Positions 43,227 through 43,618 of a stretch of DNA of 64,000 bases are shown here, in pieces (the first letter of the stretch is position 1; the number at the start of each line of letters is the position of its first letter). This DNA comes from Escherichia coli. GTDB taxonomy: Bacteria; Pseudomonadota; Gammaproteobacteria; Enterobacterales; Enterobacteriaceae. Both the position numbers and the translations under genes were made by a program. The stretch is taken from NCBI RefSeq assembly GCF_024502345.1, contig NZ_JALDNN010000001.1; one strand, 5' to 3'. Under the pieces are notes generated by a model, which saw nothing but the letters and a program-made list of their open reading frames with translations, was not told the origin of the DNA and made no database searches.

Positions 43227-43618
43227 AGGGGCTTCATCCGAATTGCGCCATTGTTGCAATGGCGGTTTTTATTGTTTTTCACGACAGTAACCGCACCTAC
43301 ACTGTCATGACATTGCTCGCCCCTATGTGTAACAAATAACCACACTGTGAATGTTGTCTTTAATCAATTGTAAGTGCATGTAAAATACCACTTTAGAGTT
43401 AGTCAGTATCTTCCTCTTTTTCAACAGCATGCATAACTGCATGTTCCTCAAAGAATTAATCAACTTTTGTTGCTGACCTTCAAAAATTACCCTGCCGTTT
43501 ATTTGCACAATTCTACTTTTGCGTGATCTGTCGCCCAAATACTAAACAAAACTGCCAATACCCCTACATTTAACGCTTATGCCACATATTATTAACATCC
43601 TACAAGGAGAACAAAAGC
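43227..43618. promoter_or_regulatory. Divergent nrfA/acs control region
   Basis: AT-rich 390-bp intergenic between divergent genes; FNR-like half-site pair TTGTC-N4-ATCAA near 43346-43359. Confidence 0.45.

Follow-up and report, generated by a model that had tools for sequence, protein, structure and literature searches.

The locus raises the question of whether the DNA separating the oppositely oriented genes nrfA and acs serves both of them, and which of its bases could carry out that function in the Escherichia coli DNA analysed here (a stretch of 64,000 nucleotides, hereafter the window). Our analysis indicates that it almost certainly is the shared control region of the divergent units nrfABCDEFG and acs-yjcH-actP. 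The gene identities, coordinates, motif matches, registration with mapped start sites and cross-genus conservation given below come from the analysis itself; protein binding and regulatory effects are taken from the literature.

RefSeq annotation transferred from K-12 NBRC 3301 places the nrfA start codon (minus strand) at 43226..43224 and that of acs, an ATG on the plus strand, at 43619, leaving an exact spacer of 392 bp (43227-43618), in agreement with the divergent nrfA/acs control region proposed by a first-pass annotation of the sequence. The AT-richness and multiple A/T tracts noted at that stage are equally evident, with a G+C content of 38.8% vs 52.7% for the whole window and nine A/T runs of at least six bases. 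From 43200 to 43640 the window is identical to K-12 NBRC 3301, and the spacer is thus K-12 base for base. The window itself comes from a non-K-12 strain: within 43100-43750 it has a single difference from K-12, located outside 43200-43640 (99.8% identity to K-12 derivatives), and is 100% identical to strain 120899. The same interval was matched in 5413 of 5426 complete E. coli genomes.

The start of the nrf promoter (pnrf) can be fixed without any recourse to regulatory motifs. Godfrey et al. (2017; PMC5434802) reported that their p+102A mutation turns the nrfA Arg codon AGG into AGA, and described pnrf as having +1 = C and +4 = G, with FNR bound at -41.5 and NarL/NarP at -74.5. Codon 3 of nrfA in the window is AGG and its third base is 43218, which places +1 at 43319 without using the FNR site. 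The string TTGTC-TTTA-ATCAA occurs once in the spacer, at 43354-43367, so that the FNR-like TTGTC-N4-ATCAA element of the first-pass annotation does exist as a single copy, but the coordinates assigned to it (43346..43359) were shifted by 8 bp to the left and share 6 bp with the actual site. As an inverted repeat of the TTGAT-N4-ATCAA type, TTGATTAAAGACAA agrees at 8 of 10 positions; 0.36 such matches are expected per spacer of this composition (probability of at least one, 0.30), and the FNR-type match is by itself not beyond chance. Its centre, 43360.5, lies exactly at -41.5 from the independently anchored +1, the class II position, and 12 of its 14 columns are invariant over 17 divergent sequences. 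Published measurements on the identical sequence gave 5119 units of pnrf activity in the wild type vs 54 and 36 in two fnr mutants, FNR ChIP-seq put nrfABCDEFG among the directly activated targets, its site being at -41.5, and FNR ChIP-chip found a peak at acs/nrfA. The FNR element is real on the strength of where exactly it lies, how well it is conserved and what published experiments show; the motif match alone would not be enough. The features located in and around the spacer are collected in Table 1.

Table 1. Features of the nrfA-acs control region in window coordinates (strand: +, -, or. where none applies; conservation: mean over the aligned spacers).
Feature	Position	Strand	Evidence and remarks	Conservation
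nrfA ribosome-binding region with GGA motifs	43217..43239	-	GGAUGA 43239..43234; GGA across codons 3-4, 43219..43217 (CsrA target)	
nrfA-acs intergenic spacer	43227..43618	.	annotation transfer from K-12 NBRC 3301, and composition	0.82
nrfA leader hairpin 2, +56..+74, 8-bp stem plus 3-bp extension	43246..43264	-	fold; 98.4% of cells paired in nrf sense	
A-rich linker GAAAAACAAUAAAAAC, repeated A-R-N triplets	43265..43278	-	unpaired in folds; A-rich stretch conserved	
nrfA leader hairpin 1, +10..+41, 11-bp stem	43279..43310	-	MFE fold and RNAalifold	
pnrf transcription start, +1 = C (nrf strand)	43319	-	PMC5434802 +102 anchor; +1 = C and +4 = G both agree	
pnrf -10 hexamer TACACA (-12..-7), preceded by TG at -15/-14	43326..43331	-	sequence read from the +1 anchor	
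Fis I-type site over pnrf -10 element	43327..43341	.	centre -15; one mismatch to GNNYAWWWWWTRNNC	0.91
FNR site TTGATTAAAGACAA (nrf strand)	43354..43367	.	centre -41.5 from pnrf, -34.5 from acsP1; 8/10 to consensus	0.97
IHF I/NsrR zone, between FNR and NarL sites	43368..43385	.	16/18 columns invariant	0.96
NsrR-like half-site TACATGCACTT	43372-43382	-	9/11 to AANATGCATTT; at -58 from pnrf, next to FNR site	
NarL/NarP 7-2-7 site TACCACT-TT-AGAGTTA	43386..43401	.	12/14 to TACYYMT-N2-AKRRGTA; centre -74.5 from pnrf	0.99
acsP1 start (weak distal acs promoter)	43395	+	-224 from ATG; PMC2759082 Table 1 promoter string, unique mapping	
Least conserved segment	43402-43430			0.51
CRP II, distal CRP site of acsP2	43469..43484	.	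6/10 to CRP core; centre -122.5	0.73 (right half only conserved)
Fis-type match	43494..43508	.	centre -98 from acsP2; 2 mismatches; in conserved block TTATTTGCACAATTC (43499-43513)	
CRP I CGTGATCTGTCGCCCA	43522..43537	.	7/10 to CRP core; centre -69.5 from acsP2; 14/16 columns invariant	0.92
Fis-type site overlapping CRP I	43533..43547	.	centre -59 from acsP2; one mismatch; conserved	
acsP2 -10 hexamer TATTAT (43587-43592) and start C (43599, -20 from ATG)	43587..43599	+	PMC2759082 string	0.99 (hexamer)
acs Shine-Dalgarno AAGGAG	43604..43609	+	read from sequence; near-invariant across genera	

A simple sigma-70 scan found no promoter-like site in the interval, which is uninformative here, since each of the three promoters either has a poor core or needs an activator. 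Across the 64-kb window there are 47 matches of at least 8/10 to TTGAT-N4-ATCAA, most of them inside genes, vs 29.15 ± 5.07 expected, a number reached in 0 of 100 shuffles.

On the nrf side, the best 7-2-7 match for NarL/NarP, two TACYYMT heptamers inverted around a 2-bp spacer, falls exactly at the published -74.5 with 0.027 matches of at most two mismatches expected by chance, and is the only site in the region improbable by motif score alone. Published work has IHF and Fis repressing pnrf, and NarL/NarP displacing IHF. The Fis I site overlaps the pnrf -10 element, with position -7 just outside it (PMC5434802). Fis-type matches with at most one mismatch occur three times in the spacer vs 0.58 expected (P ~ 0.02), one centred at -15 from pnrf and two upstream of acsP2, at -59 and -114; the pattern has G/C at +/-7 around an A/T-rich core, and the matches at -15 and -59 overlap the pnrf -10 element and CRP I. 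The IHF consensus WATCAANNNNTTR has no match with at most one mismatch anywhere in the spacer; with two mismatches allowed, matches appear at about -48/-49, -106 and -133 to -145 relative to pnrf. IHF sites are known to be degenerate, and IHF I is placed at -54 from pnrf. The centre positions of IHF I-III, Fis II-III and CRP II are taken as background.

NsrR half-sites of the form AANATGCATTT are represented by TACATGCACTT (9/11) and by AACATGCAGTT (10/11, at -121), a frequency at chance level (2 found, 1.5 expected). The main variable column of the roughly 50-bp block running from the FNR to the NarL site is 43377, where Escherichia has C and Salmonella and most Citrobacter have T, and which falls in the ATGCA core of the NsrR-like half-site; the window carries the K-12-type C. 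Salmonella nrf has been reported to be insensitive to nsrR, and the C/T difference at 43377 fits this insensitivity, lending support to the putative NsrR half-site. Further upstream, a conserved dyad ATAAC-N5-GTT(AT) lies at 43431-43446 and is a full palindrome in Citrobacter. It contains AACATGCAGTT, about -159 from acsP2, and may correspond to the IHF II or a Fis region.

The acs promoters were registered in the same manner, from promoter strings that end at the start sites at -224 (acsP1) and -20 (acsP2, start determined by 5'RACE) in PMC2759082; the stretch 43584-43599, which includes the acsP2 -10 hexamer and the start, is at least 90% conserved. FNR bound at -34.5 has been published as totally repressing acsP1, and the distance of -34.5 between the FNR centre and the acsP1 start is consistent with that repression. 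The centre of CRP I lies exactly at -69.5 from acsP2, the position given for the proximal CRP site in the RegulonDB paper, so that a TGTGA-N6-TCACA-like element upstream of -60 and on the appropriate helical face occupies the proximal class III position. An A-to-T change at the acs base numbered -93, which weakens acs expression, corresponds to A43526 inside CRP I. RegulonDB lists two CRP activator sites, three Fis repressor sites and three IHF sites at acsP2, where Fis and IHF act as anti-activators, Fis specifically against CRP; CRP-cAMP has been published as essential for acs expression and IHF as modulating it. The CRP II dyad is an 8/10 FNR-like match (TTGCTGACCTTCAA, 43470-43483), yet agrees with the CRP core at 6 of 10 positions; its right half (CTTCAAAA) alone is conserved, the left half not being kept outside Escherichia. 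The dyad is centred at -122.5 from acsP2, where Beatty and co-workers reportedly placed CRP II in 2003. Between CRP II and CRP I, the block TTATTTGCACAATTC (43499-43513) is 94% conserved across genera.

A scan for NrfA with one genome per species returned 34 loci. The divergent acs-nrfA layout is kept in Escherichia, Citrobacter, Salmonella and Intestinirhabdus, and in six loci from Trabulsiella, Enterobacter sp. BIGb0383, Entomohabitans and Serratia the 3 kb upstream of nrfA contain no acs, which confines the shared control region to the Escherichia-Citrobacter-Salmonella-Intestinirhabdus group. We aligned 24 spacers and derived the conservation means from 17 sequences less than 95% identical to one another, drawn from these four genera. 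The roughly 50-bp block of the FNR, IHF-NsrR and NarL sites is near-invariant across the four. In the least conserved part of the spacer, about -95 from pnrf, extra DNA inserted at 43413/43414 makes the spacers of Citrobacter and Salmonella longer by about 39-44 bp and that of Intestinirhabdus by 28 bp (20 loci together). An insertion and the absence of the stimulatory IHF III site have been published for Salmonella, and the insertion at 43413/43414 would fit both.

That the FNR-like and CRP-like matches arose by chance in an AT-rich spacer, with regulation located elsewhere, is a reading that deserves attention since FNR-type matches of 8/10 are common (47 in the window, 0.36 expected per spacer) and CRP-type matches stand at chance level (3 found vs 2.16 expected, P = 0.37). 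We nevertheless regard it as extremely improbable, as the matches fall exactly at -41.5, -74.5 and -69.5 from independently fixed starts, the FNR-to-NarL block is near-invariant in four genera beside neighbouring spacer DNA that is 51% conserved, and fnr dependence, ChIP peaks and point-mutation effects have been published for the identical sequence. The motif scan that had been suggested as a check does return FNR- and CRP-type matches in the interval, but a plain scan is not decisive, because in AT-rich DNA it discriminates FNR and CRP sites poorly (CRP II, for instance, scores 6/10). The argument is carried instead by registration with mapped starts and by conservation, together with published genetics and ChIP. 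A spacer hiding an unannotated small protein or small RNA gene is just as hard to credit. Mechanical open reading frames of 71 aa (43323..43538, minus strand) and 40 aa (43223..43345, minus strand) can be drawn, but the longer frame starts with TTG upstream of the sole known minus-strand start site, crosses the least conserved segment (0.51), and also crosses 43413/43414, where relatives carry insertions of 39-44 bp or 28 bp and the frame is not kept; the small-ORF reading of the spacer was rejected on account of these variable-length insertions among relatives. An Rfam scan of 43150-43700 at E <= 1 matched zero families.

A further reading concerns 43246-43274, where a hairpin followed by a T-run could be a plus-strand intrinsic terminator halting antisense transcripts from nrfA before the acs promoters, rather than an element of the nrfA mRNA. 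It is the sole terminator-like site in 43100-43750 (8-bp stem with five G-C pairs, tail GTTTTTATTG; 0.5 expected), and its T-run is conserved across genera. We consider a terminator unlikely, given that stem pairing is better kept in nrf-sense RNA than in the plus sense, that the predicted plus-strand stability falls to between -3 and -6 kcal/mol in several species, and that neither a plus-strand gene nor a known promoter lies upstream. Over 16 distinct sequences, 98.4% of the cells of this stem, hairpin 2 of the nrfA leader, are paired in the nrf sense vs 89.8% in the plus sense, and all 13 one-sided changes are G·U pairs in the former but mismatches (C·A or A·C) in the latter. These substitutions point to selection on the nrfA mRNA in a manner that is suggestive only, the independent events being few (roughly 8 to 2). 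What the plus strand shows is probably leader hairpin 2 and the A-rich linker in mirror image, and the terminator and nrfA-mRNA roles of the segment could coexist.

Returning to the nrfA mRNA, its leader is 93 nt long (43319..43227, minus strand) and folds into two hairpins and an A-rich linker, followed by GGAUGA and the AUG, according to both the MFE fold and RNAalifold. Both hairpins are conserved in the four genera. Across 21 distinct sequences, 98.0% of the 461 pair cells in the two hairpins are standard and compensatory changes are seen at three pairs; neither the pairing nor the covariation score was equalled in 500 column shuffles, a measure that related sequences inflate. In hairpin 1, 98.3% of cells are paired, one pair shows AU/GC compensation, and several U·G pairs are possible solely in nrf-sense RNA. 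GGA motifs are found at the ribosome-binding site and start codon, as expected of a CsrA-controlled leader, with GGAUGA at +81..+86 and GGA at +101..+103, and the TCATCC and TCCTTG strings of this region are conserved among the aligned spacers. CsrA represses nrf through the GGA at +101..+103, and p+102A relieves the CsrA-dependent repression (PMC5434802).

Godfrey et al. called the role of the long conserved nrfA leader unclear, and a review mentions, for the nrf genes, only putative sRNA interactions from high-throughput data. We tentatively propose, as a possibility rather than a probability, that the leader is a structured post-transcriptional module in which the two hairpins present the A-rich (A-R-N)n linker and the GGA-containing ribosome-binding site, for Hfq/sRNA binding or for bridging by a CsrA dimer. 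Binding of Hfq to the linker, like any part played by Hfq, sRNAs or CsrA bridging, is an inference only. Such a module, if it exists, could set nrfA translation or mRNA stability; it would give a role to the long, conserved leader and account for the residual repression, exerted downstream, that has been described in Salmonella. The two-hairpin leader is the sole part of the region with some open value.

The leader also contains a mini-ORF, AUG-UCA-UGA, at 43305-43313 (minus strand; +7..+15). An AUG followed by one or two codons and a stop is found in 21 of the 21 distinct leaders compared, taking the form AUG-UAA in S. enterica arizonae. The mini-ORF and the 5' arm of hairpin 1 share bases, and the need to keep that structure is probably why the mini-ORF is conserved. 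The palindrome TGTCATGACA (+9..+18) was considered as a DNA operator and rejected, because its left arm varies whereas hairpin 1 stays paired at the RNA level.

The first-pass annotation had stated that the region integrates FNR, NarL/NarP, CRP and nucleoid proteins, and this description holds, with the FNR, NarL/NarP and CRP I sites at their published positions and a literature that documents control of nrf by FNR, NarL/NarP, IHF, Fis, NsrR and CsrA, and of acs by CRP, Fis and IHF. Combined with the published effects, these sites describe pnrf, the single nrf promoter, as owing its activity to FNR bound in the class II position, its -10 element (TACACA) being poor, and as held down by IHF adjoining FNR and by Fis over the -10 element (43327-43341). 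Nitrite induces through phosphorylated NarL or NarP, which binds the -74.5 site and displaces IHF. NsrR adds NO-sensitive repression at the putative half-site between FNR and NarL, and CsrA targets the 93-nt leader at the GGA around its start codon. Under anaerobic conditions the same FNR site, at -34.5 of acsP1, shuts that promoter off. Most acs transcription comes from acsP2, where two CRP dimers (at -69.5 and, putatively, -122.5) would activate synergistically in class III fashion, and where Fis acts as an anti-activator during growth and IHF does so once cells are stationary.

This arrangement is a textbook case of signal integration at divergent promoters, combining oxygen (FNR), nitrite and nitrate (NarL/NarP), NO (NsrR), growth rate (Fis, IHF), carbon status (CRP) and CsrA. 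The nrfA-acs region is already known in detail, and its confirmation here adds no new biology; the outcome is a base-accurate site map in window coordinates and the finding that the strain has the K-12-type alleles -7A and C43377. In comparison with the pnrf/acsP1/acsP2 region of E. coli K-12, all anchors and site positions coincide with no spacer difference, the window coming from a non-K-12 strain with the common -7A rather than the -7T of O157:H7. The E. coli nir (nirB) promoter shares the class II FNR site at -41.5, repression by nucleoid proteins and relief by NarL/NarP displacing IHF; the table of the FNR ChIP study gives -41.5 for both promoters. Its NarL/NarP site is at -69.5. Unlike nrf, nir is not known to have a divergent CRP-dependent partner promoter, and has no reported CsrA-controlled leader. 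Class III CRP promoters with tandem upstream sites, such as fixA (RegulonDB), resemble acsP2 in having a pair of CRP sites facing the same side of the helix; in acsP2 the proximal one is at -69.5 and the putative distal one 53 bp away. In acsP2, unlike such promoters, the CRP sites are interleaved with anti-activating Fis and IHF sites, and the far upstream part of the region also serves pnrf.

The -7 base of pnrf (43326) is A in the window, the common allele. PMC5434802 describes -7T as an O157:H7-specific up-allele of the pnrf -10 element, and a 61-mer with T at -7 has exact matches in 296 records, the 12 listed including named O157 and O157:H7 strains. In the sequence itself, the -7T allele gives the hexamer TACACT; the text of PMC5434802 prints TATACT.

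In one genome of E. coli BL21 (NZ_CP170101.1), a partial pseudogene annotated as 'integrase' lies inside the nrfA-acs spacer (positions 720-851 of the extracted locus). Insertions of IS elements upstream of acs are already known from evolution experiments (PMC2763269). The BL21 pseudogene is a scar, either engineered or left by a mobile element.
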